Source: an uncultured bacterium (GTDB lineage: Bacteria > Patescibacteriota > Minisyncoccia > UBA6257 > 2-01-FULL-56-20). Taken from it: DNA of 64,000 nt. Positions 1 through 26,238 of the stretch are shown in pieces (positions within the stretch are counted from its first letter, which is position 1; every line of letters starts with the position of its first letter). A program made the translations under genes and the position numbers. The stretch spans positions 396,305 through 460,304 of the forward strand of contig OY970175.1 of NCBI GenBank assembly GCA_963707865.1, given 5' to 3'. The notes under the pieces were generated by a model that did not search any database, was not told the origin of the DNA, and saw only the letters and a program-made list of their open reading frames with translations.

Positions 1-680
1 GCGGCGGCGTAGATTACGCGAAGGGCGTCGGCGGCCGGGCGAACTACGGCGGCGACGTGAACGACACACGCACCGACGACGAGTACAAGGAATTCCTCCG
101 CAAGAGCATCGTGAACGCGCTTGCGGTCGCGAAGGACGACGTCCATGTCTTTTATTACTGCGACGCCTCGTACGTGTGGTTGCTGCAAACGCTCTACCGT
201 GAACTTGGCATTGACTACAAGCGCACGTGCCTCTGGATTAAAAACGGACTCGGGCTCACGCCGGGCATCGCGTTTAACAAGGGGTATGAGCCGTGCGTGT
301 ACGGGGTCAGGGGCCGGCCGCCGATCACGAAGGGCATTGAGAACCTCTCCGAGATCATGAACAAGGAGATCGGCACGGGCAACCGCACGCTGGACGACAT
401 CCTTGACAGTCTGGAAATATGGTTGGCAAAACGATTGCCGGGCAGCGAATATTTTCACGCCACTTCCAAGCCGCCGACGCTTCATGAACGCGCGATTCGC
501 CGTTGCACGAAGCCCGGCGACATCATTTTGGACAGTTTTTGCGGCAGCGGCAGCACGTTGATCGCCGCCCACCAACTGAAACGCCGGGTCTATACGGTCG
601 AACTTGAACCTGTCTTCTGCGACCTCACGATCGCGCGGTTTGAAAAACTCACGAACCTCCATGCCAAAAAACTCAATTAA
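1..680 (+). CDS. DNA methyltransferase (beta-class N4/N6), C-terminal part; 5' end lies outside the window
   Basis: The reading frame is open to position 1. It carries the AdoMet-binding motif SKPPTLHERAIRRCTKPGDIILDSFCGSGSTLIAA typical of the DNA methylase N-4/N-6 family. Confidence 0.7.
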   Translation, partial: GGVDYAKGVGGRANYGGDVNDTRTDDEYKEFLRKSIVNALAVAKDDVHVFYYCDASYVWLLQTLYRELGIDYKRTCLWIKNGLGLTPGIAFNKGYEPCVYGVRGRPPITKGIENLSEIMNKEIGTGNRTLDDILDSLEIWLAKRLPGSEYFHATSKPPTLHERAIRRCTKPGDIILDSFCGSGSTLIAAHQLKRRVYTVELEPVFCDLTIARFEKLTNLHAKKLN

Positions 681-1437
681 GAAAATTCAATACGGGGATA
701 TGTTCCGTATCGGGAACCACGTGCTCGCGTGCGCGGACGCGCGGGATGCCGCGTTCATCGATCGCTTCGTCGGTACGCGGAAAATCAAGCTCGTGTGCTG
801 CGATGTACCCTACTCCGTAAATTACGCGGAAGCGAAAGCGGGCTTCGCAAAAATCAGGGTGGCGAAAGATATCCTGAACGACGACCTCGGCTCAGAGAGC
901 GAATATTCCCATTTCACGCAGGAATGGCTCGCCGCGATCGTGCCGTATCTCGAGCGCAAGAACGCGATATATATCTTCAACAGCGACAAGATGCTCTTCG
1001 CGCTCCGCGACGGCATGGAGCGCGCGGGCATCCATTTCTCACAGCTTCTCATCTGGTTGAAAAGTAATAGCGTGATCGGCCGGAAGGATTATCTCCCCGC
1101 TCACGAGTTGATCGCTTACGGTTGGTTCGGAACGCATGACTTCAAGAAGGCGAAAGACAAGACGCTCTTGTACTGCCCGCGCCCCAGCCGCAGCCCCTTG
1201 CATCCGACGCAAAAACCGGTGCCGCTTATCCGCCGTTTGATTTTGAACAGCACCGACATCGACGATGTTGTGTACGACGGGTTCGCGGGATCGGGTACAT
1301 CGGGCATCGCCGCAGAGCAAACGAAACGGTCGAGCATCCTGATTGAGCGCGACGAGCAGTATGTCGCCACGATCATTGCGCGATTCCAAAAACTTTTTGG
1401 CCTTGCGGCCGAACGCATCAACCATGAAACGAGATAA
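661..1437 (+). CDS. DNA N4/N6-adenine/cytosine methyltransferase (beta-class)
   Basis: A DPPY-like catalytic motif (CCDVPYSVNY) is followed by HPTQKPVPLIRRLI...YDGFAGSGTSGIAA. The ORF-track start was trimmed to the MPKNSIKK methionine. Confidence 0.75.
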   Translation: MPKNSIKKIQYGDMFRIGNHVLACADARDAAFIDRFVGTRKIKLVCCDVPYSVNYAEAKAGFAKIRVAKDILNDDLGSESEYSHFTQEWLAAIVPYLERKNAIYIFNSDKMLFALRDGMERAGIHFSQLLIWLKSNSVIGRKDYLPAHELIAYGWFGTHDFKKAKDKTLLYCPRPSRSPLHPTQKPVPLIRRLILNSTDIDDVVYDGFAGSGTSGIAAEQTKRSSILIERDEQYVATIIARFQKLFGLAAERINHETR

Positions 1438-1891
1438 AGACCAACAGCTCATTCTGGCGCAGCTCCGCAAGATCCCAATCGTGGAGGTCGCTTGCGAGAA
1501 AGTAAAGATCGCGACGAGCACCTATTATCGATGGAGGGAAGATTTGGAATTCGCGGCGGCGGCCGATGCGGCGATGCGGGACGGCAGGCTTTTTATCAAC
1601 GATCTCAGCGAGGCACAAGTGGTGACCCTTATCAAAGAGAAAAGCTGGCCGGCTATATCCTTCTGGTTGCGTGCGAATCACCCGCGTTACGCGCACCGGC
1701 TGGAGCTGGAGGGCCGCATTGAGCATGTGGAGAAACGGGCAATGACGGCGGAGGACAAGGCGCTGATTGAAAAATCGTTGAGGCTCGCCATGCCGAGCGA
1801 AAAAAGCACCCAGGAAACCGCGAAAAGGCCGGAGGAAAAATCAACGCCGCCCGACGGCGATACCACCACACATGAACCCCAACAACCTTAA
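1424..1891 (+). CDS. terminase small subunit-like (HTH) protein
   Basis: A small protein with an N-terminal HTH-like region (IPIVEVACEKVKIATSTYYRW) lies immediately upstream of the large terminase and overlaps its start. Confidence 0.45.
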   Translation: MKRDKDQQLILAQLRKIPIVEVACEKVKIATSTYYRWREDLEFAAAADAAMRDGRLFINDLSEAQVVTLIKEKSWPAISFWLRANHPRYAHRLELEGRIEHVEKRAMTAEDKALIEKSLRLAMPSEKSTQETAKRPEEKSTPPDGDTTTHEPQQP

Positions 1892-3500
1892 CAAAGAGGA
1901 GCAGGAGGCATTCATCCAACGGATGATTGAGGACGAGACGTTCCGCCGCGCAGCGACCGCGGGAAGCCTCTTCTGGTTCATGCGCTGCTACCTTCCGCGC
2001 CACGCCACGATCGGCACGGCAGATTTTCAGAAAGAGATTCTCACCCTGCTTGAACAGAATATCCCGGGCATCACGGCGTTTGCGGCATTCAGGGAGGCAG
2101 GCAAAAGCACCATGCTGCGGGCGCACGCCATCCACCAGATCGTGACCGGCAAAAGGCATTTCGTCCTCATCGGCAGCAAGACCGAACGACAGTCGCAAGA
2201 CCACCTGAAGAGCATCAAGCGGGAATTTGAGGACCCCACGAACATCCTCCTCCAGAACGACCTCGGCCCGTTTCGCGAAGAAAGCGACGAATGGGGCAAG
2301 TGCATCGTGATCCCGCGCTACGACGCGAAGATTGCCGCGGTCTCCGTCGAGCAGACCGTGCGAGGTATCCATTACCGGCAGTACCGCCCGGATTTGATCC
2401 AGCTCGACGATATAGAAGACCTCAATTCCATCAGGTCCAAGGAGGCGACGGATAAGATCCATGAGTGGCTGGAGCGGGACGTGATCGCGGGGGGATCCAA
2501 GAATGCGCGCATCGTGATCACGAGCAACCTGCTCGCGGAGGACTCGGTTCTCACCCGCATCCGCAAGGACATTGAGGCGGGCAAGCGCGACGGCGTCTTT
2601 CACAGTTATCCTTTAATTGACGAGGAGGGAAAGGTGGCGTGGTCGGAGAAATTCCCCACGCCGGAGTCATTGGAGCAGGAGAAGCGGCGGCACACGGAAC
2701 TCGCATGGAAACAGGAATATCTCCTCCTGCCCGTGACGGACGATGAGCCCGTCGTGAGGAAGGAATGGCTGAAGTATTACCACGACCTGCCGAAGCCGGA
2801 TGACTATCCCCCGCACCGCCTCCGCCTTGTCGCGGTGGATCCGGCTTTTTCGGACAAGGAGCACGCCGATTGCACGGCAATCGTCACTGCGGATGTCTAT
2901 GGCTACGGCGACCAGCGGAAGATTTACATCCGCCGGGACCCCGTCAACAAGCGAGGGCTCTCCGTCAAGGAGATTGCCGAGTTCGCGAAGGCGTTATGCG
3001 ACGAGGCGATCAGCATGGGCCGTCAGGCGGAGGTCGTGGTGGAAACGGTCGGCGCACAGATGATCCTTCTTGAGACGATGCGGGACGCGGGCATCGTGCG
3101 CGTGCACGGGTTCAACCCCGGCAATCAGGACAAGCGGCTTCGGCTCTCCGTCGCGGGCTACACCGTGCAGCTGGGGCAGGTCCATTTCGCCGACGACGAG
3201 GCCGACGGCCCGCTCCTCCGCCAGATCCTCAACTTTGGATCAGGGCACGATGATTTGGCCGATGCCTTCAGCATGCTGATCCTCAAGCTGACCGAAATGG
3301 ATGCCAAAGCGCACGTCACCGTTCCGCGCCCTTATGCATTGATGCCAACACCTTCGCCCGACCTCACGAACCCCGACGTGCTCAAGGCCGAGATAAAGAA
3401 GCTGGATCAGCAAGCCATGGCGGACTCGGAATACGAGCGGAGCGGGTACAACCCCAAGTTCCGGAAAAAGGCCGACGGCGGGGGGAAATTAACGTTTTAA
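1872..3500 (+). CDS. phage terminase large subunit
   Basis: A 542-aa protein with an N-terminal ATPase-like region and a C-terminal RNaseH-like nuclease region (LVAVDPAFSDKEHADCTAIVTADVYGYG). It follows a small HTH protein. Confidence 0.65.
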   Translation: MNPNNLNKEEQEAFIQRMIEDETFRRAATAGSLFWFMRCYLPRHATIGTADFQKEILTLLEQNIPGITAFAAFREAGKSTMLRAHAIHQIVTGKRHFVLIGSKTERQSQDHLKSIKREFEDPTNILLQNDLGPFREESDEWGKCIVIPRYDAKIAAVSVEQTVRGIHYRQYRPDLIQLDDIEDLNSIRSKEATDKIHEWLERDVIAGGSKNARIVITSNLLAEDSVLTRIRKDIEAGKRDGVFHSYPLIDEEGKVAWSEKFPTPESLEQEKRRHTELAWKQEYLLLPVTDDEPVVRKEWLKYYHDLPKPDDYPPHRLRLVAVDPAFSDKEHADCTAIVTADVYGYGDQRKIYIRRDPVNKRGLSVKEIAEFAKALCDEAISMGRQAEVVVETVGAQMILLETMRDAGIVRVHGFNPGNQDKRLRLSVAGYTVQLGQVHFADDEADGPLLRQILNFGSGHDDLADAFSMLILKLTEMDAKAHVTVPRPYALMPTPSPDLTNPDVLKAEIKKLDQQAMADSEYERSGYNPKFRKKADGGGKLTF

Positions 3501-3504
3501 GGAG

Positions 3505-3816
3505 ATGATTTGCGCTCTTTGCGAAGAAAAGGGTTTGAAAAGCAAGGTGGTCTTGGATTGCTGCTCTTCGTACGACGAGAATGATTATTTTTCGGGAGGA
3601 AAGTATGGGCGGTGGGCAATCGGAGAACAATATTATGATACGGACGGAAAATTTCACAATCACCACCTTGCGAGATTCTGGGTGGGCGGCTGTTGCTCGA
3701 ACGGGCACAACATCATGATCCGAGAATCAACCAAGTGCCCGAGCTGCGATGACGGCGAAGGGGTAGTCATAAAGTTTTACGAACCAGCGCCTAGTGAAGA
3801 CATCGGAAGGTGGTGA
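3505..3816 (+). CDS. Cys-rich zinc-ribbon small protein
   Basis: It contains CxxC...CC...C...CPSC motifs and is preceded by an AAGGAG ribosome-binding site. Confidence 0.4.
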   Translation: MICALCEEKGLKSKVVLDCCSSYDENDYFSGGKYGRWAIGEQYYDTDGKFHNHHLARFWVGGCCSNGHNIMIRESTKCPSCDDGEGVVIKFYEPAPSEDIGRW

Positions 3817-4388
3817 ATAAAGGCGGACGTCCCCTCTGGGTGGGCAGAAATCACCAGCTTCTTAAAAACAAAAAAATGGCGAATGTAAATAATGCAATAA
3901 AAACCAAGCTTGATATACTGAAAGAGATGTATGCGGAACACCGCGTAACAAGATATTTCAAGGAATGTAGAAGTGTTGAGGATAAAAAGGGGTTTCCGTC
4001 GGAAGTCCGATGGAGTGCATTTCTTGATTTCTTATGCGATAAAACATCTTATAAAGTTTTATGGAAATACCGCCTATGGAAAAAGATGACGAAAGAATTA
4101 TCTGATGAAAGACGGAATGTTTTGGATCGCCTCATAAAAACTTGTATCCCGAAATATCTTGCCGTTGATATGAGCAAAGTTAGTCCACCGGCAACAGGGA
4201 AAGATGAAAGAGAGAGCCGAGTAATAGAAATTACTCCCGATGGAAACGATATGGCATCTATACCAGATTTCTATTTTTCTAGATTGCCCGAAAAATATCC
4301 GAGTTATGGTAAGGTATTGTCGGGTATAACTGGTATTATAATACTTATAATTGGTTTTCTTATTGGCATGTTGTCGAAATCGTTATGA
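3810..4388 (+). CDS. hypothetical protein with C-terminal transmembrane anchor (AT-rich gene)
   Basis: The ORF ends in a hydrophobic C-terminus (GITGIIILIIGFLIGML). Local GC content is clearly lower than in the flanking DNA. The true start may be MANVNN near 3876. Confidence 0.4.
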   Translation: MVNKGGRPLWVGRNHQLLKNKKMANVNNAIKTKLDILKEMYAEHRVTRYFKECRSVEDKKGFPSEVRWSAFLDFLCDKTSYKVLWKYRLWKKMTKELSDERRNVLDRLIKTCIPKYLAVDMSKVSPPATGKDERESRVIEITPDGNDMASIPDFYFSRLPEKYPSYGKVLSGITGIIILIIGFLIGMLSKSL

Positions 4389-4397
4389 GCAAGCAGA

Positions 4398-5984
4398 TTA
4401 AGGGCTCGTCACGGGAACGAAGGTTTCAGTGAAAGCACAGTTCACAACGGAGCTCGTGGGTACGCCATCGCTGCTGTGGCAAAAACCGTTATTGAGTGGA
4501 GTGTAGTTCGCGAGCGGAGAGATGTTTACGCCATAGACCATGTTTGGGACAATGAACACCTGCGTGCCTGACGCATTTCCGGGGAACGAGGAAATGCTCG
4601 GATTGCTCCCGATGATCGTCACTGTAAAATTGGAAGGTGATGCCGTCCCGCCCTGCGAGTTGTCAACCGCCACCGAAACGTTCAAGATGCTTGTATTGTT
4701 GGTTGGCATAACGAGAGCGGGAACCGATTGATTGCTTGATGCGGGCGAGTTCAAAAATGATTCAGCAACATCCGATGGCGTCGCAAAGGAAATTCCCGTT
4801 ACATTAATATCCAGTCCCAAGGTATCGGCCAATTCATTGATACCAACGACGTTTCCGTATTGATCCACGAGCGGCCCGCCGCTGTCTCCCGGGTTTATTA
4901 GCGCCGAGGTTTGCAACAATTCTCCAAGCTCTGAAAATCCCGCAACGGTCCTTCGGGCGGTTACAATCCCCGCCTCGACCTCAAGCGTCTGGTCGGTATC
5001 GCAGGTTCTGGGAAACCCGAAAGAAACGACGCTTGCGCCGAGCGGCAAACTTGCATCGCTTGAATTTCCGAAAGAAACTACCGGCAATCCGCCTCTCGCA
5101 ACTTGCAAAAGCGCCAAATCCCTGGTCGGATCTTCCTGCTGGATAGTGGCCGGGACCACCATGCCATCGTTGAAATAGACGTTGATGCTGCCCGCTCCGG
5201 TTATCACGTGGTCGTCCGTCAGAATGCCTCCGCCGCCTTGGACAACCATGCCGCTGCCGCACCCAAAATCAGTGCGAATCAAGACGACCGAGGGAGAAAG
5301 CTTCGCCACGATTTGCGCCGTTGTCAGGACTGTACCTGATTGGGAAGTCGTAGGAGAGCCGGGTCGTATCGTTATCGCCCCGGGGAACGTGAATTGACCG
5401 CCGTCAGGATTTTTCACGGTGACATCGTAAAGACCCGGGTTGAATCCTGACGGATATTGAGCCGAAATCAACGTTGGGGTAATGGAGCCCATTATTTGAA
5501 GGCCGGTATTTCCCAGCGTCACCTCCGCGTCACTTTCAAAGCCGGAACCGTTAATGGAGATGGTATTCTGATAACCTGCAATCATAATCGTCGGGTTTAC
5601 GAAAGTTATGACGGGAGCGTTGCTCGAGGCGTTTTGGAGCGCCGTCACTTGCTTTTGAAGCGTCGTTATTTGGGTGGCGGCGCCGGCAGAACTCTTTTTT
5701 GAGGATTGGACTGGCGCCGATTTTAACTGTTGTATTTCTGCTTCAAGCTCGTTGATACGCACATCAACCGTATCGCTTGCAGTTGTCGTGGCTGATTGAG
5801 CGGACGATGAGGATTGTATAATAAGAGATTGCTCAAATTGGTTTGCTTTTGCCTGAACCGCTGCGTTGATTTGGTTTTGTTCATAGCTCCGCAACGCGAT
5901 GACGCCACGATAACCACCATAACTAGTGGATAGGACTAGGAAAGTAATGATGACGACTTTATAGCTTTGCCAGAATGCGTTCAT
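4398..5984 (-). CDS. secreted trypsin-like (S1/HtrA-family) serine protease with N-terminal TM/coiled-coil and IPT/TIG-like domain
   Basis: It carries the GDSGGP active-site motif (LINPGDSGGPLVDQYGNVVGI). An Ig-like beta-rich segment and an N-terminal hydrophobic helix are also present. Confidence 0.65.
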   Translation of the reverse strand: MNAFWQSYKVVIITFLVLSTSYGGYRGVIALRSYEQNQINAAVQAKANQFEQSLIIQSSSSAQSATTTASDTVDVRINELEAEIQQLKSAPVQSSKKSSAGAATQITTLQKQVTALQNASSNAPVITFVNPTIMIAGYQNTISINGSGFESDAEVTLGNTGLQIMGSITPTLISAQYPSGFNPGLYDVTVKNPDGGQFTFPGAITIRPGSPTTSQSGTVLTTAQIVAKLSPSVVLIRTDFGCGSGMVVQGGGGILTDDHVITGAGSINVYFNDGMVVPATIQQEDPTRDLALLQVARGGLPVVSFGNSSDASLPLGASVVSFGFPRTCDTDQTLEVEAGIVTARRTVAGFSELGELLQTSALINPGDSGGPLVDQYGNVVGINELADTLGLDINVTGISFATPSDVAESFLNSPASSNQSVPALVMPTNNTSILNVSVAVDNSQGGTASPSNFTVTIIGSNPSISSFPGNASGTQVFIVPNMVYGVNISPLANYTPLNNGFCHSSDGVPTSSVVNCAFTETFVPVTSP

Positions 5985-6007
5985 GGCAGTTGCATAGTCG
6001 TTAGTCG

Positions 6008-7063
6008 TTAATAGTAATCCTCTACAGTCACTGTGTAATGAACGTTGTTTGCATCAAGATCTAGGTAATATTGACCTGGATCTTGCGAGTAAACGTAAGA
6101 AGTATTACTTGTCGGACAATTAACTATCTCCGCGAATACGTTGCCACCACCGCCGGTTGCGGAATCAACAATACCGTTAAAATTCGAATAGGAAACGCTG
6201 CTGTCCGACACGGTACAGCTATAATTTATCCGCCACTCGCTGCCCTGCATAGAAAAAGGAGGTGTTTGAATGCCGATATTATTGTTGTAAGTGTATGCCG
6301 TGTGCCAACTTTTCGGTGTTGGAGGAGGCGCTTGAGGAGTGGGAGTTTGAGTTGTCGCCGCTTGAGTCTGCGTCGAAGCAGGCTGCCTTGGCGAGGTGAT
6401 TTTAGCTGGAGCGTTTCCATCGCCGCTCGCGGGCAGATTTGCCTGAATCAACGAACAGTTTGAGAGCATCGGACTGCCCAAAATATAATTATTAATTTCG
6501 CCCTGTACCACGATCTGATCCCCATGTTGTAACGCGGATAACTGACTCTCCTGACCTTGGGCGAATGCACACTGGACGCTGTTGAAGCTATCTAGGCTCG
6601 CCTTTATAACAATGTAGGGGTTTCCAAGGATGTCTTTGTTGACCGAATCAAGTAGTCCGTTTACTTGGAGCACCGGGCCCTTATATTTGTTGTCTGCGGC
6701 CACTTGATTACTACCGTAGTCCGCGATAAGTTGCGCCGCCGAAACATCAATTGGTTGTGGGTTGGCTTGTTGACTGGACACCATCGCTGGCGTGTTGTTA
6801 TTTTGCGACCCGCCACTTACCGCGCCGATGATAATGAGAAAAGCGACGACTACGATCGCGATCGTCACAATGGGATGTCGGTTCGGCCAGCTTTTCGGCT
6901 TTACCACCGCCTCCGCGCTTTTATTTTGTTCTTCCATGAATGTTTTTGCTGATCTTCTATTTTTTTCGACTTGTTCCACTTTTTTCCTTTGCGCATACTT
7001 CTGCAATCCCTGCCCAAGAGCTATCAGAAAAATGCCGACCAAGATAATGTAAAAAAAAGTCAT
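6008..7063 (-). CDS. membrane protein, hypothetical (two TM helices, Thr/Pro/Gln-rich linker)
   Basis: Hydrophobic segments are present near the N-terminus and mid-protein. No recognisable catalytic motif was found. Confidence 0.45.
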   Translation of the reverse strand: MTFFYIILVGIFLIALGQGLQKYAQRKKVEQVEKNRRSAKTFMEEQNKSAEAVVKPKSWPNRHPIVTIAIVVVAFLIIIGAVSGGSQNNNTPAMVSSQQANPQPIDVSAAQLIADYGSNQVAADNKYKGPVLQVNGLLDSVNKDILGNPYIVIKASLDSFNSVQCAFAQGQESQLSALQHGDQIVVQGEINNYILGSPMLSNCSLIQANLPASGDGNAPAKITSPRQPASTQTQAATTQTPTPQAPPPTPKSWHTAYTYNNNIGIQTPPFSMQGSEWRINYSCTVSDSSVSYSNFNGIVDSATGGGGNVFAEIVNCPTSNTSYVYSQDPGQYYLDLDANNVHYTVTVEDYY

Positions 7064-7314
7064 TGAGTTTTGTCTCCCGCCTGTTTCTCCCGCTCCATAA
7101 TAAGCGTGATAACTTTTTCCTTTTTACCAAGGAGGGCAAGTGGCAGGAAGAGCCCGCCAAGGCAACACGTCTTACCCGCATCCCAACCTTGGTCCGTAAC
7201 CTCCTTACTCTTTATCTCCCAACCCTCATTCGCCAATTCATCAATTGCTTTTGCCATCCTCGCCCTGCCCTCAATGGTTTCTGGGAAAACGAGCGTCTTA
7301 TATTCCTTTGCCAT
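7060..7314 (-). CDS. small hypothetical protein
   Basis: An 84-aa ORF with good coding bias whose stop overlaps the start of the neighbouring gene. Confidence 0.35.
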   Translation of the reverse strand: MAKEYKTLVFPETIEGRARMAKAIDELANEGWEIKSKEVTDQGWDAGKTCCLGGLFLPLALLGKKEKVITLIMEREKQAGDKTQ

Positions 7315-7321
7315 GTTATTT

Positions 7322-7552
7322 TTATGTTTTTATTCCTATGCGCCGCGCATTGATCGGATTACAGCTTAAAAGCCGGTAGCCGATACGAAACGATGCCGTT
7401 ATAAAGTTGTGATTTTCAAGACAATGAATCGCGTAATGGGAACAGCTCTGCTCGAACAAGCATCTCACTCCCATCTTCTGAAGCTGGGGAGAAATATCCT
7501 TTTGATATTTTCGGATCAAACCGATAAAGAATGAATTTATAGTATTGGGCAT
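7322..7552 (-). CDS. yidD: membrane protein insertion efficiency factor YidD
   Basis: It contains the YidD/haemolytic-domain signature CLFEQSCSHYA...SCNP. Confidence 0.7.
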   Translation of the reverse strand: MPNTINSFFIGLIRKYQKDISPQLQKMGVRCLFEQSCSHYAIHCLENHNFITASFRIGYRLLSCNPINARRIGIKT

Positions 7553-7565
7553 TTGAGTAATGATG

Positions 7566-7889
7566 CTATTGAGGATAGAGGTGATAACAATCGTCCTTTG
7601 CGTTTTGCAGTCGGTTATCCAAAAGATTTGCCATGGCGACAGTGAGCTTACAATTCACGGATTTGTATTCATTCAGGCATTCATTATTCCAGTCGCTGAC
7701 GTAGTTACTCTGCGCCGTTGAGAGGCAGTCCGCCAGCTCGGTTTGTTTGTCGGTTGAACTACTTGATCCAGCGCCCACGATTGCTACAATCACCACCACG
7801 ACAATAACCAGTCCGACAATCACGAGTATTGAGATGCCACATCCTTTTGCAAATTGATTCCCCGTGGACGGATTAGTCTTTGCTTCCAT
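7566..7889 (-). CDS. small membrane-anchored hypothetical protein
   Basis: A single long hydrophobic stretch (ILVIVGLVIVVVVIVAIVGA) is followed by a Cys-containing extracellular tail. Confidence 0.4.
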   Translation of the reverse strand: MEAKTNPSTGNQFAKGCGISILVIVGLVIVVVVIVAIVGAGSSSSTDKQTELADCLSTAQSNYVSDWNNECLNEYKSVNCKLTVAMANLLDNRLQNAKDDCYHLYPQ

Positions 7890-7898
7890 GGGGTAAGG

Positions 7899-8891
7899 TT
7901 ATTTTGGATACTTAAAGCACCACATGGTAACCGTGCCGCATGGTTCGGGAGGAGTGCCAGTCAGCCATGTAACGCCGTTCGGCAAGTTTCCCGTGTAGCT
8001 GGACAGCATGGTTGATTGCGACGGATTTTCAAAGACGATGTCGATAGCTATTATGCTGCCGCTTGCGTTCGCCCCATAATAGTAGGGGTAGTCCGTACCA
8101 GCGAGCGGGTCGTTCTCAAGACTTACTGCGGGATCCGCAGCAATCAACGTCCTTTCCAAATCCGACCACGAAGCAACTCCTGTGGGAAAGTTACCGTTTT
8201 TCTGATTATAGAGTTCGAGGCCATCAACAATCTGCGTGTAATCCGCCCCCCGCTGTTCATCGCGCCAATTACTGCCCACGGGTAGCTCCAAGCCCTGCAT
8301 GTCCGTGACCATCCAATAATTCCCGCTCTGTTTAGTGAGAATCACGTTGACGTTATAATGGTAATCGCCGACTTGTAAGACCGCGGGGACGGCCGCAGTA
8401 GCGCCAGTCACTCTTATCTGATTCGCCGGAAGGGCGAATATACCATTCAGAATCTCTCCAACGTAGGTAGTGTTGCTGTCGCCGCTAATGTACTGATAGA
8501 AACTTTGCTCGATTGTCATTATTGTAGAACTCTGCTGGCTGTCCAACCCTACTCGTCCCAAAATAGATGAGAAATTCGGAAGTGCCAACGCGTTGCTGGC
8601 AACTCTCGGCCACATCGCATTTGCAATCGCATTTTGGTCGAGGTATTGAGATGCGGCGGCCGTGTTATGCGCGGCGATTGCGAGTTGCAATTGCTTCAAG
8701 GAATACTCGGGCGTTCCCTCCTGCTGATTCCGATAAACAATGTAGGCGCCAATGCCTACGCAGAGAAGAACCACGACTGAAACCGAAATGATAATTATTT
8801 TTTTCTTCATAAGAATTATTTTTATTTTTGCTGAACAAAAATCGGCCTTTGCTGGCCGAGGTTTTAAAATTACTGAACCCCGCTCCAGCAC
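7899..8891 (-). CDS. secreted hypothetical protein (signal peptide/TM anchor)
   Basis: The N-terminus (KKKIIIISVSVVVLLCVGIGAYIV) reads as a signal anchor. No catalytic motif was recognised. Confidence 0.45.
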   Translation of the reverse strand: MLERGSVILKPRPAKADFCSAKIKIILMKKKIIIISVSVVVLLCVGIGAYIVYRNQQEGTPEYSLKQLQLAIAAHNTAAASQYLDQNAIANAMWPRVASNALALPNFSSILGRVGLDSQQSSTIMTIEQSFYQYISGDSNTTYVGEILNGIFALPANQIRVTGATAAVPAVLQVGDYHYNVNVILTKQSGNYWMVTDMQGLELPVGSNWRDEQRGADYTQIVDGLELYNQKNGNFPTGVASWSDLERTLIAADPAVSLENDPLAGTDYPYYYGANASGSIIAIDIVFENPSQSTMLSSYTGNLPNGVTWLTGTPPEPCGTVTMWCFKYPK

Positions 8892-9323
8892 GAGCCTTGC
8901 GGCTCCATAACTCTTTCGAGCTATGACCCATAGGAGGTTGCTGAACGCGGGGTTCAGTATCTCCTATGGGGTTTTGAGCCATGCCAAGCGATGTTTGGTT
9001 TAGGCTATACAATCCGATATTGAATTGTTAAGAAAACTATACCGCTTGCGACCTTTCCCGTCCAACCCTAGCTTAGATCGTAGGCGTTGCGAAGGGGGAA
9101 GTTATCAACTTGCCTCATTCGGCATTTCGTCGCCCCGTAATGAAGCACGTTCCTAACGATTCTCAAAAAACTTGACAAATGTGGTGTTATTATGTTAAAC
9201 TTACAGCGTTCCTTAACAATGGAAAATTCAAGGTTTCCAGTGAAATGAGGCGAGCGTTGGGGAAGGCAATCAATGTGGCTTCTCGAACACTCGCCTCATA
9301 ACCTGAGCGGGTAGAAATGGAGG

Positions 9324-10247
9324 ATGATAACGATGAATACCACATCGATTACATCCATCACCGAAGGACAGAAAGAACTTTATGAACGCGTCGTCCGCGA
9401 TGCCGCGAAACACGGCACCGCGCTTGCGCTCCAGAAGACCGGCGCTGACCAGATCGGCTGGCAACGCGTCATTGAAAACGGTGACGACCTCCGCGAAGCA
9501 ATCGCGGCGACCATCGTGGCCAGAACAAGGGAACTCTCGCTTTCCAACCAGTTTGCAAACGAGGAAGTGAAATCCACCTACGGCTATCCCAGCGGCTACG
9601 CGCCGAAGCCGATCGAAGCGCAGGTTGCTATCCTGCGCGAGATCTGGCCGAAGCTCAACATCGGCGGCTGGGTCGCGCAGTTTGAACGCGCGGTCGCTCC
9701 CGGCGCCGAAGCACATTTCGTGATCGTCCGCTGGCAAGCGCTCGCGCCGTCCTACGGCGAGGGGTTGGAGAAGGAGCTGTTCCCCGCGCTTCGCGCGCAA
9801 CGGAACGGCACTTTCTACAACTACCGCAATGGCGAACTCGGCCCCGAGCAGCTGCGGCAGCACGAACGCACCATTCGCATGTTCGCGAAGTTCGATGCCG
9901 ACCAGCCTGGCGATGTACTCATTGTCTCGGCCCAGCTCGGCCTCCGTCACCGCGGACGTTCGACACGTCGGGCACATGAGGTGTTCGTCGTAAACGAGTT
10001 TGGTCTCGGCGCATTTCATGTCGGCTGCATCCTGCTGACTCACCCCGAGCGGGAAGTCCAATGGGAACAGCTCCATATGGATTGCCCCGGCGACGAATTC
10101 AGTCCGAGGGCGGATGGCCAGTTCTCGCACGCGCCGTACTTCGGCTTCGGCGACGTCAGGCTCAAGTTCAACGCCCACGGCGTGGGCTATGCTGGCGGGT
10201 ACTGTGGCTCCGCGTCCGCGCTGCTTCCGCAGTATCTGCAACCTTGA
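9324..10247 (+). CDS. DGR variable (target) protein; C-terminal ~45 aa encoded by the variable repeat (VR)
   Basis: A GGAGG motif lies 7 nt upstream of the ATG. The 3' 130 nt form a near copy of a downstream template repeat and differ from it only at positions that are adenine in the template. Confidence 0.7.
   Translation: MITMNTTSITSITEGQKELYERVVRDAAKHGTALALQKTGADQIGWQRVIENGDDLREAIAATIVARTRELSLSNQFANEEVKSTYGYPSGYAPKPIEAQVAILREIWPKLNIGGWVAQFERAVAPGAEAHFVIVRWQALAPSYGEGLEKELFPALRAQRNGTFYNYRNGELGPEQLRQHERTIRMFAKFDADQPGDVLIVSAQLGLRHRGRSTRRAHEVFVVNEFGLGAFHVGCILLTHPEREVQWEQLHMDCPGDEFSPRADGQFSHAPYFGFGDVRLKFNAHGVGYAGGYCGSASALLPQYLQP
10104..10233 (+). repeat. DGR variable repeat (VR)
   Basis: It aligns to 10717..10846 with no gaps. 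All 18 mismatches fall at TR adenines, mostly at codon positions 1-2 of TR AAC codons. The last 24 nt are identical and GC-rich, consistent with the IMH region. Confidence 0.8.
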
Positions 10248-10716
10248 ACGCTTGGATGCTTGGGACTTTTTATTCCCTTATCTTCTTGATCCCTTGCATT
10301 CGCGCAAGTTTTTTTCCAGGGGCTTCCGCACATTCATCATTCATCGCGGCGGCCCCTTTCTCTTTATATATTTAATGATGTTCACGATCCGTGATTTTTC
10401 TGCTATTCTTCTTTCGGGTCTAGGCCAATGCGCGGCCGTTCCGGTTCATGGCACTTGCCAACGGGATCGCCGTCGCCGAACCCTCTCTTCATAGAGAAGC
10501 AGCCAGAGTCCGGGCGATCATAATGGTTTCCCGGAGCGTGCCGCATTGGGGAGATACTGCTTGCTTTTGCCTAGTGCGGGTGTCCTGCGGAAGCGCGGGA
10601 CTGCCGCCGGATGAAATTCAGGGACCAGAGGATATACTTGGCTCCTTTTGAGCGGAAAACCTCAAGTCCCGGTGCTCAGAGATAGTTGCCCGTTGTGGAT
10701 GGGCGGAAGCAATATT

Positions 10717-10846
10717 CCGAAGGCGGATGGCCAGTTCTCGAACGCGCCGTACTTCAACTTCAACGACGACAAGCTCAAGTTCAACACCAACGACGTGGGC
10801 AATGCTAACGAGAACTATGGCTCCGCGTCCGCGCTGCTTCCGAAGT
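10717..10846 (+). repeat. DGR template repeat (TR), rich in AAC codons
   Basis: It is the adenine-rich partner of the VR. For example, TR ttc aac ttc aac gac gac aag corresponds to VR ttc ggc ttc ggc gac gtc agg. Confidence 0.8.
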
Positions 10847-10856
10847 CGCTTCCCAA

Positions 10857-10886
10857 GAGCAATGCCCCGACCTCGGTCGGGGCATT
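10857..10886. terminator. perfect 14-bp hairpin (gcaatgccccgacc tc ggtcggggcattgc) between TR 3' end and avd 3' end
   Basis: This inverted repeat was read directly from the sequence. It lies between convergent features and could act as a bidirectional terminator or as a structural element of the TR RNA. Confidence 0.5.
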
Positions 10887-10889
10887 GCG

Positions 10890-11237
10890 TTACTGCTTCA
10901 CTGAACGGATCCATCCGCCGAGCATCCGACCAACCTCGTCAATCGGCTCCTGAAACGCGAGGTATTTCTTCTGGTCGATGCCATCCGTCTCACGCATGAG
11001 CCGAATGAAGATACGGAGGAAATTCAGCTTCACGCTTGTTTTCTCCAACACGGAAAGCTTTGTTGCCTTCGGCATCTGGCTCGCTGCCATGATACCCTCG
11101 AGGATGTCTAGGATCATGCCGTCGCACCGCTGCCAAATCGTATAGCGATCCTGCTTCGAAATGAGATTGCGGTAGCTATAAAAGAGCTTGTAGAGATCGC
11201 ACGTCTTCTTGAAAATCGGGATGTCAAAATCGTCCAT
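10890..11237 (-). CDS. avd: Avd-like accessory variability determinant (four-helix-bundle protein family)
   Basis: A 115-aa basic helical protein (IWQRCDGMILDILEGIMAAS...KLNFLRIFIRLMRE) sits between the TR and the RT, on the opposite strand. Confidence 0.6.
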   Translation of the reverse strand: MDDFDIPIFKKTCDLYKLFYSYRNLISKQDRYTIWQRCDGMILDILEGIMAASQMPKATKLSVLEKTSVKLNFLRIFIRLMRETDGIDQKKYLAFQEPIDEVGRMLGGWIRSVKQ

Positions 11238-11249
11238 AGTATTTTATCC

Positions 11250-12324
<1,075 letters not shown>

Positions 12325-12461
12325 TAGCCATATGACTCTCCACAAAAAATTTGGATAGTATAGACTGGACTTTCATGAGCTTTTGTCGCCTCGTAGCGGT
12401 CTCTGAGTTATCAACTTGACCACTCTGGACGCCCAAGCGGGGTTGCGTCATCCCTTGTGGT

Positions 12462-13811
12462 ATGACTACCCAAACCATGGGGGCCAAGGGGACGGGAGCC
12501 CCCACAACAATCCCGTCCGAGGTAAAGGTCAAATACTGTCTGTATGCGAGAAAAAGCACGGAATCGGAAGAGCAGCAGGTGCTTTCCATTGATTCGCAGA
12601 TCAACGAGATGACGAAGATCGCGGAACGGGACGGGCTGGAGATTGTGGAGATTAGGAGGGAAAGCCACTCGGCGAAGGCGGTCGGCCAGCGGGAGATTTT
12701 CAACGGTCTCCTCGCGGACATCAAGGCCGGCAAGTTTAACGGGATCCTCACCTGGGCGCCGGACCGGTTGAGTAGGAACGCGGGTGACCTCGGCAATCTT
12801 GTGGATCTCATGGACCAGAAACACCTCATTGAAATCAGGACTTACAGCCAGAAGTTCACGAATTCGCCGAACGAGAAATTCATGCTGATGATCCTCTGCT
12901 CCCATGCAAAACTGGAGAACGACAACAAATCGGAGAACGTGAAGCGGGGCATGCGGGCGCGGTGCGAGATGGGCCTGCGGCCCACGGTCGCCCCCACGGG
13001 ATACCTGAATGAGAAGCGGACGGATCGGCCGTGCCAAGTAATCGTGGATCCCGTGCGGGCTCCGATCATAAGAAAGATATTTGAGAAAGTGGCGCACGAC
13101 CAATGGTCGGGACGGAAGCTCTACCATTGGCTCAAAGACGAGGTGAAATTCACGACGCCGTACGGGAAGCCGCTCGCGTTGAGCAACATCTATCTGATCC
13201 TCAAGAATACCTACTACTACGGCGTGTTTGAATACCCTTCCGGCAGCGGCAACTGGTATACGGGGACCCATACACCCATTATCACGAAGGAACTCTACGA
13301 TGCTGTGCAGGAGCAGCTCACGCGGAGCGAGATCACGAGAGAGAACAGAGAGTTCGCCTTCACAAAGCTCATCACCTGCGGCCTCTGCGGTTCGGGCGTC
13401 TCCGCTGGCGAGAAATGGAAGCACTTCAAGAACGGTACGAGCGCCCGATACGTCTACTACGGCTGCACAAAGTCGCGGGACAAGGAATGCCCCTGCGGGT
13501 ATATCACAGAGGAAGCCATCGTGCAGCAGATCATTGGCATTATTGATACCTTGGATATCAGCGAGCTGGGCATCAGGCACAAGTTCAAGGATGAGATCAT
13601 GCGGTACAACAAGTTCCGGAAGATTGCCTTGAAGGGCGCAGCGAAAGAAGCGGCCCAGGAGGATTTTGACCTCAAGGCCTATGCGATCTATCTCTTGACG
13701 GAGGGGTCCATCAGTGAGAAGCGGGAGCTTCTGGGCAACCTGAGGAGTCGGTTGATCCTCAAGAACAAGGTGCTGACCCTGCAAGAGGAACCGAAAGAAA
13801 AAACAGAATAG
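12462..13811 (+). CDS. large serine recombinase (resolvase/invertase N-domain + recombinase domain + zinc ribbon)
   Basis: It has the catalytic serine motif YARKSTESEEQQ, a recombinase-domain middle region, and the C-terminal CGLCGS...YYGC zinc ribbon. Confidence 0.8.
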   Translation: MTTQTMGAKGTGAPTTIPSEVKVKYCLYARKSTESEEQQVLSIDSQINEMTKIAERDGLEIVEIRRESHSAKAVGQREIFNGLLADIKAGKFNGILTWAPDRLSRNAGDLGNLVDLMDQKHLIEIRTYSQKFTNSPNEKFMLMILCSHAKLENDNKSENVKRGMRARCEMGLRPTVAPTGYLNEKRTDRPCQVIVDPVRAPIIRKIFEKVAHDQWSGRKLYHWLKDEVKFTTPYGKPLALSNIYLILKNTYYYGVFEYPSGSGNWYTGTHTPIITKELYDAVQEQLTRSEITRENREFAFTKLITCGLCGSGVSAGEKWKHFKNGTSARYVYYGCTKSRDKECPCGYITEEAIVQQIIGIIDTLDISELGIRHKFKDEIMRYNKFRKIALKGAAKEAAQEDFDLKAYAIYLLTEGSISEKRELLGNLRSRLILKNKVLTLQEEPKEKTE

Positions 13812-13825
13812 TTTACACGAAAGCA

Positions 13826-13869
13826 ATACCGCGGAAACATCCGCGGTATTGCTTTCGTGCGGGTACCGT
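13826..13869. terminator. perfect 19-bp stem hairpin (cacgaaagcaataccgcgg aaacat ccgcggtattgctttcgtg) after the recombinase
   Basis: This inverted repeat was read directly. It is not followed by a T-run, so it may be a terminator or a recombination/attachment site. Confidence 0.4.
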
Positions 13870-13927
13870 CGGCACCTCGGTCGCGCAAACAGGGCAGCCA
13901 GCTCTGTCCCTTGATAAAAAATATACT

Positions 13928-14005
13928 TGGTACCGCCATCGGGATTTGAACCCGAGTTTTCGCCGTGAGAGGGCGACGTCCTAGGCCGGGCTAGACGATG
14001 ACGGC
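13928..14005 (-). tRNA. tRNA-Glu (anticodon CUC), CCA encoded
   Basis: The sequence folds by hand into a cloverleaf with anticodon loop CU-CUC-AC. Its D-arm and anticodon arm closely resemble canonical tRNA-Glu. Confidence 0.75.
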
Positions 14006-14042: not shown

Positions 14043-15638
14043 TCAAAGCCGGTCCGGCGGAATATTCTCGTAATTGATGATGTACCGTGACAGTTCCTTG
14101 AATGCCGGCACGACGCTCTGTGCCGCAAGCGCGGTCGCCGGCAACGTGTTCAACCGTATGAGGGCGATGAAACGCGGGTTGGAGGTCGGCCCGAATCCCA
14201 CATATGAATCAATAAGATAGTTGGTATACCCTCCGTGCACGAGGTCGGGAATAAAGGCACTCCCCGTTTTCCCTGCCAGGGAATAACCGTTGATGTTTGC
14301 GACCTGCGCCAAGTCCACTGCGTCCACCATCATCCGGGTCACTTGCGCCGCGGTGCTCGTACTTACCACCCTTCCCTGCGACTCAGGCGAGAGCGCTGCG
14401 TTCAGGTAGGGCCGCATCATGAGGCCGCCGTTCGCGATCGCCGCAATCGCACTTACGAGCGCTATTGGCGTTACCGCCACGCCCTGACCGTATGCCGCCG
14501 TATCAAACGCGACCTGCCGCGATTTCGGATTAAGCTCGCTCAAATTCCCCGCCACTTCTCCCGGCAGGTCAATCCCCGTCTTTTGATCCAGGCGGAATTT
14601 TTTCATGTAGCTTGTAAAAATGTCGTTGCCCGTCTGGTTTTCAGCAAAGATCGCACCGGTGTTGATGGAATGCTCAATCACCTCGGTTATGGTGGTGCCC
14701 GGACCGTACGGCCCGTGCGTCAGAAGATCGTAGTTCGTGATGTGGGCGCTATTCACGTTCACGTATCCTTTGTCGTCGTACGTGGTGCTCGGCGTGATCT
14801 TCCCCGCATCAATCCCCGCTGCCATCGTAAGCACCTTGAAGATAGATCCCGGCTCATATACCGCCTGGATGTTCGGATTCAAGAAATTCGCAATGGGCGA
14901 AGCACTGTAGTCGTTCGGATCAAAATTCGGATCACCGGCCATCGCGAGAACTTTCCCCGTCCGGGGCTCTTCCACAATGATACTGCCGCCCGTGGCACTG
15001 TTCTGTGTTACAAGGTCATCCAACACTTTTTCAGCCTCAATCTGAATGTTCGGGTCAATCGTCAAATTGATGTCGGTAGCATCCGCGAGCGTGCTCTCGT
15101 AAAATCCCTCAATGCCGTAATGGCCGCTCTCGCCGTTGTTTGTCGCATTCGGACCCACGTACCCCAAGGCCTGCGACGCCACGGTCCCCAGAGGATAATA
15201 GCGATCAGGTTCAAAATCGGCGTATACTCCTTTGAGGTTCAGATCGGTAATCTTCTGCGCCACTAAGGAATCCGCCTTGTGTACCAAAAGCTCAAATTGG
15301 TCGTTCGGTTTTGAAAAAAGCTTTTGGAGCGTAGCTACGGACATGCCGAGAATTGGCGCCGCCATGTTCGCTGCCTCTTCGGCGTCCGCGATTGCCGCAG
15401 GAACCGCGTAGATCCTTGGGAATTCCCGCTCAATAGCCGCCGGCAACAGCGTGCCAGTGTCGTCCGTAAAATAAATGGATCCGCGGCTGCCACTTGTGCC
15501 CTGCGCTGTTGCTATCTCGGCCTGCGCCTTAGCGAAATAATAATCTCCTTTTGTAATTTGCAGCTCATAGAGATGGAATCCCAGCAAAAAATACGCCGCT
15601 ACGAGCACTACAATGATTATTGCGAAGCGATAGGCCAT
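14043..15638 (-). CDS. ftsI: penicillin-binding transpeptidase FtsI/PBP3-like
   Basis: It has an N-terminal TM helix, the SxxK (SIFK) and KTG (KTGSA) motifs, and sits in dcw-cluster context. Confidence 0.8.
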   Translation of the reverse strand: MAYRFAIIIVVLVAAYFLLGFHLYELQITKGDYYFAKAQAEIATAQGTSGSRGSIYFTDDTGTLLPAAIEREFPRIYAVPAAIADAEEAANMAAPILGMSVATLQKLFSKPNDQFELLVHKADSLVAQKITDLNLKGVYADFEPDRYYPLGTVASQALGYVGPNATNNGESGHYGIEGFYESTLADATDINLTIDPNIQIEAEKVLDDLVTQNSATGGSIIVEEPRTGKVLAMAGDPNFDPNDYSASPIANFLNPNIQAVYEPGSIFKVLTMAAGIDAGKITPSTTYDDKGYVNVNSAHITNYDLLTHGPYGPGTTITEVIEHSINTGAIFAENQTGNDIFTSYMKKFRLDQKTGIDLPGEVAGNLSELNPKSRQVAFDTAAYGQGVAVTPIALVSAIAAIANGGLMMRPYLNAALSPESQGRVVSTSTAAQVTRMMVDAVDLAQVANINGYSLAGKTGSAFIPDLVHGGYTNYLIDSYVGFGPTSNPRFIALIRLNTLPATALAAQSVVPAFKELSRYIINYENIPPDRL

Positions 15639-15931
15639 TGCTGATTGGCTCTCACATATTGCGGTTTTTGTTCTTGCACAAGTCCGTCCTTTGCCGCGAG
15701 CGCCGCCGCATCGTCGCTGCCCAATAGCCCTATAATCGTATTATTCAAATTGGTATTTGCCGCGCCCGTCGCGTCAAGCTGCGCCTTCGCCGTCGCGATG
15801 CCGTGGTCAAGGTTTACCGTGGCGTTATAGAGCACTACCATCCCGAACACTTCCATAGCAAGCACAACGCCGAACACCACAAGTATGGCATTCACAATGT
15901 GTCTTTTTTTGTTGGGTTGGATAAACGTCAT
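15617..15931 (-). CDS. ftsL: FtsL-like cell division membrane protein
   Basis: A small protein with a single TM helix, placed between rsmH and ftsI. Confidence 0.5.
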   Translation of the reverse strand: MTFIQPNKKRHIVNAILVVFGVVLAMEVFGMVVLYNATVNLDHGIATAKAQLDATGAANTNLNNTIIGLLGSDDAAALAAKDGLVQEQKPQYVRANQQWPIASQ

Positions 15932-15933
15932 GG

Positions 15934-16818: not shown

Positions 16819-16877
16819 GGAAATTTCTAATTGACCTAATGACTAATCTCTAAATCCCAATTGGACATTAGAAATTT

Positions 16878-17309
16878 CTAAATGCCCAGCTCGCCCAATT
16901 TTTCCGCGATCTCTTCCGAAGAACTTTCCGTTTTTGTTTTGTAGGACTGCCACGCGGCTTCATCCCAAATCTCAATGCGATTATAAAGCCCCGCAATGAC
17001 CACTTCTTTCTTGAGGGCGGCGTACTTGCGAAGATAGTCGGGGATCAGAATCCTCCCTTGGTTGTCTATCTCCACGTCCGAAGCACCTGCAAGCATGAGC
17101 CGCACGAATGCGCGTGAGTTCGCTTGAGCAAGCGGCAACGCAATGAGCTTTTTTGCGAGCACTTCCCACTCGGCGTTCGCGAACACAAAAAGACAATTGT
17201 CAATTCCGCGCGTGATGATAGCTCCGGCCGATAATTTGTCGCGGAATTTTGCCGGAATCGCCACCCGACCTTTGATGTCCAAATTGTGTTGGTATTCTCC
17301 GAGAAGCAT
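16878..17309 (-). CDS. mraZ: transcriptional regulator MraZ
   Basis: Both DXXXR halves (LDIKGRVAIP and a second copy) are present. The start was trimmed to MLLGEY. Confidence 0.8.
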   Translation of the reverse strand: MLLGEYQHNLDIKGRVAIPAKFRDKLSAGAIITRGIDNCLFVFANAEWEVLAKKLIALPLAQANSRAFVRLMLAGASDVEIDNQGRILIPDYLRKYAALKKEVVIAGLYNRIEIWDEAAWQSYKTKTESSSEEIAEKLGELGI

Positions 17310-17367
17310 GGTTTTATAAGGTGTCATTCCGAGTTCTGCACAGAAAGTGGCATTTATCCCCAGAATT

Positions 17368-26236: not shown

Positions 26237-26238
26237 AT

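Follow-up and report, generated by a model that had tools for sequence, protein, structure and literature searches.

A terminase-bearing large-serine-recombinase element with a candidate phase-variable diversity-generating retroelement at the 3' end of a Minisyncoccia tRNA-Glu gene

What kind of element carries terminase genes, a diversity-generating retroelement (DGR) and a large serine recombinase (LSR) side by side, and how did it come to lie next to a tRNA-Glu gene? This question is raised by the left end of a 64,000-nucleotide (nt) stretch of a Minisyncoccia/Paceibacterota chromosome (contig OY970175.1 of assembly GCA_963707865.1, positions 396,305 to 460,304), here called the window. We hold it to be likely, with good though not full confidence, that window positions 1-13929, together with 2,398 nt to the left of the window, form a 16.3-kb site-specific integrative element, which belongs to a family defined by its terminase and LSR genes, may spread in the manner of a phage satellite and may carry a switchable DGR. 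The island combines features of a serine-integrase integrative element with those of a phage satellite. The coordinates of all features are collected in Table 1.

The integration itself can be read from relatives that lack the island. A scan of species-representative genomes with the FtsI protein encoded in the window returned four matches, namely a complete 888-kb chromosome that is a metagenome-assembled genome (L002; FtsI 92% identical to that of the window), two further Minisyncoccia metagenome-assembled genomes (L003 and L004; 93% and 70%, respectively) and a Paceibacterota contig (L005). By these relatives the host is a Patescibacteria (CPR) bacterium. The first three constitute the island-free comparison set. 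In each of them mraZ-rsmH-ftsL-ftsI is followed by tRNA-Glu and then by tpiA-SIMPL-gtrA-murB-hpf-secA, the latter block starting about 1.3 kb past the tRNA after variable DNA. No island protein has a homologue in the tRNA-to-secA region of these three genomes, and a tblastx comparison of the relatives with the window gave noise only. Nucleotide synteny with L002 and L003 runs from about 21.4 kb in the window down to position 13930 and ends exactly at the 3' end of tRNA-Glu, which bears out the integrated mobile element abutting this tRNA that had been proposed in the initial annotation. The other end of the element is contained in a Logan contig (L001) that is 100% identical to window positions 1-10770 and extends 3,913 nt leftwards. 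Positions 1180-1530 of this contig are collinear with the DNA directly after the tRNA in the relatives, and the left junction was found 2.4 kb past the window edge. The element extends from L001 position 1516 to window position 13929 and measures 16,327 bp. These alignments show that the element, as reconstructed, separates the tRNA from the DNA that is next to it in related genomes, and the LSR evidently inserted the element at the extreme 3' end of tRNA-Glu(CUC).

The empty site (attB), the right junction (attR) and the left junction (attL) have in common the 5-bp core GGTAC, and their flanks are only degenerately similar. Their layout is B-O-P' / P-O-B', as in site-specific recombination, and junctions that share nothing but GGTAC fit a serine rather than a tyrosine integrase, since a short core is expected of the former. 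The terminal CCA of tRNA-Glu is element DNA; the tRNA remains complete because the element provides its last bases, including the CCA. From the two junctions, attP is predicted to read ...GATGTGGGGTAC/CAAGTATATT... and attB ...GATGGCGGTAC/GAGCAAC.... Excision, which would be mediated by the LSR, is predicted to yield a circle with the junction ...CTGATGTGGGGTAC/CAAGTATATTTTTTATC... and a restored empty site that reads ...CCCGATGGCGGTAC/GAGCAACACAAG....

A repeat of the tRNA-Glu 3' end on the left side, which the initial annotation had envisaged as the partner in an attL/attR pair, does exist: an exact 19-nt copy links window positions 13933-13951 with L001 positions 1247-1265. We rejected it as the attachment site of the island, and regard it as an older relic, since the island-free L002 and L003 have their own second copies of the tRNA-Glu 3' end, each matching its own tRNA allele, and collinearity with them continues to about L001 position 1515. 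The repeat thus lies outside the island, and no tyrosine integrase was detected between the junctions with Pfam or PHROGs. In L002, a 52-nt stretch is 88% identical to the DNA beside the second tRNA copy of L001.

The DNA behind this tRNA has features of its own. Three features recur just past tRNA-Glu in all of the compared genomes, whether or not they carry the island: a long hairpin element, some 140 nt of structured sequence and a second tRNA-end copy. This copy comprises the last 15-19 nt of the genome's own tRNA-Glu allele and co-varies with that allele, and the post-tRNA segment is strongly folded (z = -7.9). Probably, the second copy is what an earlier integration at this hotspot left behind.

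Such a history might also be taken to mean that no insertion occurred, and that the island is either ancestral chromosome lost by the relatives or unrelated DNA swapped into a hotspot by homologous recombination. Besides the relic tRNA-end copy, the 1.3 kb between tRNA-Glu and tpiA, which differs among L002, L003 and L004, and a second variable segment of the window, situated beside tRNA-Thr, would be in keeping with this explanation. However, the empty arrangement is common to three relatives, including L004 with its FtsI identity of 70%, the junctions show the B-O-P'/P-O-B' order around a 5-bp core, an intact LSR lies 118 nt from the junction, and orthologous LSRs keep this distance from other tRNA genes. 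We therefore consider an origin without insertion very improbable.

An effect of the integration on the neighbouring division and cell wall (dcw) cluster had been suggested as well, namely that the insertion broke this cluster and displaced murE, murF and mraY. The cluster does stop after ftsI, directly beside the island, but the order mraZ-rsmH-ftsL-ftsI-tRNA-Glu is the same in the island-free L002, L003 and L004, where tpiA, murB and secA come next, and beyond the left junction of the island L001 has HD-domain and aspartyl-protease genes instead of murE. Because the island-free genomes have it too, the short dcw cluster is, judging from this gene order, ancestral in the lineage, and a disruption by the element is hardly conceivable. 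To the right of tRNA-Glu the mraZ-rsmH-ftsL-ftsI cluster and the genes of the ribosomal proteins L10 and L7/L12 belong to a stretch densely packed with housekeeping genes, as is typical of small genomes.

The recombinase at the tRNA-proximal end, recognized as such from the start, is intact and has the Resolvase, Recombinase and Zn_ribbon domains and a YARKST catalytic-serine motif; its closest solved relatives by sequence matches to the PDB are SPbeta YokA and the TP901-1 integrase. Directly after its stop codon lies a perfect hairpin, whose stem is 20 bp long (13816-13835/13840-13859) and not, as initially annotated, a 19-bp stem at 13826..13869. Similar hairpins stand directly 3' of the LSR stop in two other members of the family described below (L114 and L132), which explains the hairpin of the window as a terminator-like structure that accompanies these genes; it is probably the LSR terminator. 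The 3' end of a tRNA faces the LSR stop at a distance of 117-146 nt in the window (Glu) as well as in L112 (Gln), L114 (Glu) and L132 (Asp), and the spacers of these four members have a common architecture of hairpin plus arm with no alignable sequence. The enzyme resembles the integrases of SPbeta (YokA/SprA), TP901-1, phiC31 and Bxb1 in its three-domain architecture and catalytic serine motif, and the short crossover core with dissimilar arms is likewise known from the large serine integrases of temperate phages. The usual targets of those integrases are protein-coding genes or intergenic sites, whereas the LSR clade of the island is found repeatedly at tRNA 3' ends (Glu, Gln, Asp).

The opposite end of the island is occupied by methyltransferase and packaging genes. 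The two tandem methyltransferases reported initially both carry PF01555. The first is cut by the window edge: its gene starts 609 nt further left (L001 position 3304) and encodes 429 amino acids (aa), of which the window open reading frame (ORF) 57..680 represents the C-terminal 207 aa, and the full-length ParB_N-methyltransferase matches phrog_498 (6e-80) and ParB-like phrogs. No restriction endonuclease partner was found for the two enzymes, and since PADLOC matched only methyltransferase models among the core proteins, the core does not correspond to any defence system known so far. Both terminase subunits named in the initial annotation are present as well. The large subunit, TerL, is solidly assigned and retains the AGKST P-loop, the LDDIED Walker B and the HDDLADAF nuclease motifs; its matches among known phages are only about 23-27% identical and make it a distant relative of the terminases of Mu-like phages. 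The small subunit, TerS, is weakly supported by sequence but conserved in position: in 37 IMG/VR loci, as well as in L007, L009 and L010, an orthologue with 35-68% identity immediately precedes TerL. All core ORFs of the island are intact and have kept their catalytic motifs.

The search for TerL homologues at E<=1e-20 returned 468 proteins, and it is their genomic contexts that place the island in a family. The contexts at 79, 74, 69, 68 and 41% identity all keep the ParB-methyltransferase (with or without the second methyltransferase), TerS and TerL. An LSR that is 52-58% identical to that of the window (tblastn) is found in L009 and L010, and L014 has one, recognized by its Pfam domains, immediately behind TerL. 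In IMG/VR, a scan with the single TerL protein gave no match, whereas an alignment-based scan succeeded and yielded 80 loci. TerS and TerL occur together in 37 loci of this collection, and 33 of the 37 also have the LSR (44-67% identical), mostly immediately 3' of TerL; three of the four loci without it are cut by contig ends. Altogether, the core of ParB-methyltransferase, TerS, TerL and orthologous LSR recurs in about 40 Patescibacteria or IMG/VR loci. The element therefore belongs to a widespread Patescibacteria family with an invariant core, in which the second methyltransferase is often included. As a further peculiarity, TerL is present as a tandem pair between TerS and the LSR in six IMG/VR loci (L097, L099, L100, L102, L104 and L145).

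The cargo of the family consists either of anti-phage defence systems or, as in the window, of envelope proteins and a DGR. Neighbouring genes in family loci encode OLD-family nucleases, restriction-modification systems of types I, ISP and III, a cyclic-oligonucleotide-based anti-phage signalling system (CBASS; SMODS and SAVED) and LexA/S24 repressors, with defence-type flanks in L010, L014, L109, L131 and L101; the family moves together with defence islands or inserts into them. In some relatives LexA/S24 or HTH_3 and M78 genes are present. In L114 and L115 a DGR cassette (target, template region, avd and reverse transcriptase) separates TerL from the LSR, and a DGR adjoins the LSR in L031, L039, L048, L069, L070, L076 and L082. 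The element type is thus common (about 40 loci), and the lineage-specific DGR is a recurrent passenger of it. The cassette exists also outside the terminase context, since L175 (VFSW01018988.1, positions 7873-8772) encodes a target protein that is 85% identical to the DGR target of the window and has no terminase upstream; this gene directly follows host dnaG, rpoD and an alaS-like gene.

The initial annotation had left the choice between a degraded prophage and a non-phage integrative element carrying a DGR, and had noted that no portal or capsid genes follow the terminase. The latter observation stands: no ORF between the junctions has a match to portal, capsid, tail or lysis genes in Pfam or PHROGs, and no portal or capsid gene was recognized in the family loci examined. 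Compared with a tailed phage, the island and these loci have the large terminase and no recognizable portal, major capsid, tail or lysis genes. A temperate phage that had integrated at tRNA-Glu, lost these genes and died as a remnant would account for TerS and TerL, which are phage genes, and for the distant relationship of TerL to Mu-like terminases. A remnant might also have a frameshifted reverse transcriptase (RT), as the island does, and L007 has the packaging block with no recombinase nearby. On the other hand, the order ParB-methyltransferase-TerS-TerL-LSR is maintained in 33 of 37 IMG/VR loci and in L009, L010 and L014 at TerL identities of 34-79%, with the LSR following TerL directly in many of them, and independent decay is implausible as the source of one layout. 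In the island itself the core ORFs are undamaged and the sole lesion lies in a recurrent microsatellite. Since dozens of loci conserve this architecture without capsid genes, we disfavour the degraded prophage and consider it unlikely.

The island has several traits of a phage satellite, namely an integrase, a size of 16.3 kb, which is far below that of a phage genome, its own TerS and TerL and no recognizable structural genes. Given a complete terminase without recognizable portal, capsid or tail genes, spread in the manner of a phage satellite is most likely, in which case the element's own terminase would package its DNA into the capsids of a helper phage. Phage satellites also appear to be the closest functional analogues. 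Like the phage-inducible chromosomal islands (PICIs, including capsid-forming cf-PICIs, and the minimalist PICMIs) and the P4-like satellites, the island is an integrative element in the range of about 10-18 kb with its own integrase, it has packaging gene(s) without a full virion set, and its family has a variable cargo that often serves anti-phage defence (OLD nucleases, restriction-modification, CBASS). It differs from them in using a large serine instead of a tyrosine integrase, in carrying TerS, TerL and a ParB-methyltransferase together, and in having no recognized primase-replicase or Stl/AlpA-type regulator; its host is a Patescibacteria bacterium, with no known helper phage. A precedent for a satellite with a serine recombinase is the phage-inducible chromosomal island-like element (PLE) of Vibrio cholerae, which is described as integrating and excising by means of a large serine recombinase (PMC9638900) and belongs to a similar size class. 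No sequence relationship with the island was seen, though no comparison aimed at one was made. PLE is not known to have a terminase of its own or a DGR, depends on ICP1 and is not targeted to a tRNA.

The DGR that was initially reported in the island is complete in its components, to which a frameshift in the RT gene, missed at that time, has to be added. Its variable region (VR) and template region (TR) differ at 18 of 131 nt, and all 18 mismatches fall on TR adenines (18 of 33 adenines); the 3' terminal 24 nt are identical, GC-rich and resemble an initiation-of-mutagenic-homing sequence. The DGR has been active, since every VR/TR mismatch lies at a TR adenine. As the VR/TR pattern directly shows, adenine-specific mutagenic retrohoming diversifies the C-terminus of the 307-aa target, a protein expected to be cytoplasmic. 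This target has 533 homologues, all annotated as hypothetical, and fold searches identified no fold for it. The IGNLTSQ-motif RT, the Avd protein, the adenine-only TR/VR pair and a VR at the target C-terminus with an identical GC-rich 3' end are features in common with known DGRs, such as that of BPP-1 and those of Patescibacteria DGR clade 2. Three properties set the DGR of the window apart. Its Avd is transcribed divergently from the RT, and the two genes are on opposite strands in 75 of the 75 homologous loci where both were found. Its RT has an intragenic (GA)n tract. Furthermore, it forms part of a mobile element, in which TerL and the LSR flank it, whereas the Patescibacteria-restricted clade 2 has been described as almost entirely cell-encoded (Roux et al., 2021, PMC8144416).

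An intact RT reading frame, as would be expected of a currently active DGR, is not present in the assembly, where a frameshift in or beside an (AG)14 microsatellite places RVT_1 positions 8-107 in frame 1 and 117-203 in frame 2. The addition of one AG or the loss of two restores an intact RT of 357-359 aa with the IGNLTSQ and YTDD motifs. The microsatellite is the sole dinucleotide run of at least five units in the 64-kb window. We surveyed 80 DNA homologues of the RT and its 120 closest full-length protein homologues for this tract. A long (GA)n was found at exactly the same site in six of the 80 (9, 10, 11, 13, 14 and 25 units), and one further homologue has only (AG)4 there; with the window included, five of the seven long-tract DNA copies are in frame and two, the window and L083, are out of frame. 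Among the proteins, 13 of 120 have (RE)3-5.5 in the same RT loop. In total, a (GA)n or (RE)n tract of varying length and frame is present in this loop in about 20 RT homologues (loci L037, L067, L083, L091, L092 and L094; proteins P0243-P0349), and in a neighbour-joining tree the tract-bearing RTs fall into several separate branches. Tract-free homologues mostly have a motif spacing of 138 nt (range 111-138 nt). Scanning IMG/VR with a DNA pattern that places (GA)8 ahead of the PIGNLT motif gave no match.

These data make the (AG)n tract a candidate phase-variable switch of DGR activity: slippage within the gene would stochastically turn RT expression on and off, and the assembly would represent the OFF frame. 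The tract bears the signature of a contingency locus, with the reservation that the repeat may be miscounted in the window copy. It resembles the simple sequence repeat (SSR) contingency loci of Neisseria, Haemophilus, Helicobacter and Campylobacter in being a long, pure intragenic repeat with a unit that is not a multiple of three, and in the differences of copy number and reading frame between homologues. It is unlike them in that the switched gene encodes a mutagenic RT instead of a surface protein or a methyltransferase, in that the host is one of the Patescibacteria, free-living or episymbiotic, and in that the tract variation is known between homologues only.

The frameshift might nevertheless be meaningless, either because the repeat was miscounted during assembly or because the (RE)n loop is inserted low-complexity sequence that is tolerated and plays no part in regulation. 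Dinucleotide runs are prone to errors in sequencing and assembly, and most tract-bearing homologues are in frame. An independent Logan contig (L012) ends inside the tract, which speaks for this view but also fits length heterogeneity, without proving it. Yet the (GA)n is pure, without synonymous variation, it recurs in the same loop on several separate branches of the RT tree with 9 to 25 units, and two of seven long-tract copies are out of frame, while tract-free homologues mostly hold the 138-nt spacing; moreover, the RT has no other lesion and the VR testifies to past activity. We regard a meaningless frameshift as quite possible, if somewhat less likely than not.

Taken jointly, the island and its relatives may constitute an undescribed class of capsid-less, satellite-like elements (ParB-methyltransferase/TerS/TerL/LSR, located at tRNA 3' ends, with defence or DGR cargo) together with DGRs gated by a (GA)n switch in the RT, a combined proposal that we advance tentatively and to which we give slightly less than even weight. 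A literature search of incomplete coverage, which is no proof of novelty, found no description of such an element family and none of a DGR RT switched by an SSR. If the proposal holds, one hypermutation device would stochastically turn another on and off, and this would be the first sequence-encoded regulatory mechanism for mutagenic retrohoming. The (GA)n tract within the gene suggests, in concrete terms, how DGR activity may be regulated. Little is known of the phages and mobile elements of Patescibacteria, and the DGRs of these bacteria are, according to PMC8144416, essentially chromosomal. The present locus provides a serine-integrase element resolved to the base pair in a Patescibacteria genome. 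If such elements are satellites, Patescibacteria helper phages must exist, and the terminase of the element would be a handle for finding them.

Several points weigh against our interpretation of the island as a satellite-like element with a switchable DGR. Its mobility is something that we infer from comparison only, and no helper phage is known. No replication module (primase/replicase) or obvious repressor was recognized in the window copy with Pfam and PHROGs, and since four ORFs (263 aa, left of the window, 103 aa, 192 aa and 303 aa) have no detectable homology, one of them might be a structural protein that has diverged strongly. Decayed copies exist, as is shown by L007, where the packaging block has no LSR within 10 kb. 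The frameshift in the RT may be an assembly miscount, the sole independent assembly stopping inside the tract. Finally, the tetranucleotide composition of the island deviates only weakly from that of the host, and neither GC content nor the tetranucleotide profile separates the two cleanly.

Table 1. Features of the island, its junctions and its surroundings. Coordinates refer to the window unless a contig or genome is named.
Feature	Position	Strand	Evidence or remark
ParB_N + N6/N4 DNA methyltransferase, 3' part	1..680	+	PF01555 5e-23
Second N6/N4 DNA methyltransferase, 245 aa	700..1437	+	PF01555 1.6e-28
Small terminase-like protein TerS, 155 aa	1424..1891	+	weak phrog_4102 match, 7e-4
Large terminase TerL, 542 aa, apparently intact	1872..3500	+	phrog_38 2.2e-63
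Cys-rich protein, 103 aa, 8 Cys	3505..3816	+	
192-aa protein, C-terminal hydrophobic segment	3810..4388	+	
Trypsin-like serine protease, hydrophobic N-terminus	4398..5984	-	PF13365 6e-26
Membrane-anchored OB-fold (tRNA_anti-like) protein	6008..7063	-	PF12869 7e-20; transmembrane (TM) segments
DUF4177 protein, YidD-like protein, 107-aa membrane protein	7060..7889	-	PF13783, PF01809; PspC-like TM region
303-aa protein, N-terminal TM anchor	7899..8810	-	L001 gene call
LOOT RNA motif, Rfam RF03000	8892..9006	-	85.6 bits vs gathering score 46.4
DGR target protein, 307 aa, no signal peptide	9324..10247	+	VR at C-terminus, codons ~260-303
Variable region VR	10103..10233	+	131-nt repeat of TR
Template region TR	10716..10846	+	
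12-bp GC-rich hairpin between TR and avd stop codon	10861..10887	.	read from sequence
Avd accessory protein, divergent from RT	10890..11237	-	PF22296 (bAvd) 7e-15
DGR reverse transcriptase, split by one frameshift in or beside (AG)14	11250..12324	+	RVT_1 in two frames
(AG)14 microsatellite in RT gene, between motif 3 and motif 4 (IGNLTSQ)	11803..11830	+	candidate slipped-strand on/off switch
Large serine recombinase (LSR), integrase	12462..13811	+	PF00239, PF07508, PF13408; phrog_95 4e-67
Perfect 20-bp hairpin (stems 13816-13835 / 13840-13859)	13816..13859	.	directly after LSR stop codon
Element-side arm of right junction + GGTAC crossover core	13860..13934	.	core 13930-13934, tRNA-strand reading
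tRNA-Glu(CTC), integration target	13928..14005	-	ARAGORN; Rfam tRNA 54.5 bits; junction alignment
mraZ-rsmH-ftsL-ftsI	17375..14043	-	cluster ends at ftsI
Empty site (attB)	L003		GATGGCGGTAC/GAGCAAT
Right junction (attR)	window		GATGGCGGTAC/CAAGTAT
Left junction (attL)	L001 1511-1515		GATGTGGGGTAC/GAGCAAC
Post-tRNA relic region	L001 1247-1515 (window -2666 to -2398); L002 11735-12040; L003 11728-12018		
~100-nt hairpin repeat copies	window 26397-26493, 61892-61985; L002 11763-11859; L003 3418-3511		

The remaining genes of the island agree with the small Cys-rich, membrane and secreted-type proteins of the initial annotation, in that the 103-aa protein has eight cysteines and several products, among them the trypsin-like protease, have N-terminal membrane anchors. 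The minus-strand genes at 4398-8810, from the protease gene to that of the 303-aa protein, make up the envelope-type cargo block. A gene of about 104 aa takes the position of the Cys-rich protein in L007 and L009. The 303-aa protein has no match in Pfam, PHROGs or PDB. Upstream of its gene, in the divergent intergenic region that separates it from the DGR target gene, lies the LOOT motif.

A second strain-specific segment lies outside the island, at about 22699-26240; L002 and L003 do not have it, and it borders on the 3' end of tRNA-Thr(TGT) at 26239. Nowhere else in the window does the tetranucleotide composition deviate as much as in this segment, whose ORFs of 950 aa and 188 aa have no Pfam match. 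Copies of a GC-rich hairpin repeat of about 100 nt, which are 83-88% identical to one another, occur dispersed in these genomes, several of them beside a tRNA gene (window 26397-26493, L002 and L003); the repeat resembles a miniature inverted-repeat transposable element or a terminator and has no Rfam match. An IS481-type DDE transposase with rve, HTH_28 and LZ_Tnp_IS481 domains is encoded at 49271-50290 on the minus strand, between the ribosomal-protein region (L2 at 45194-46015) and hisG.

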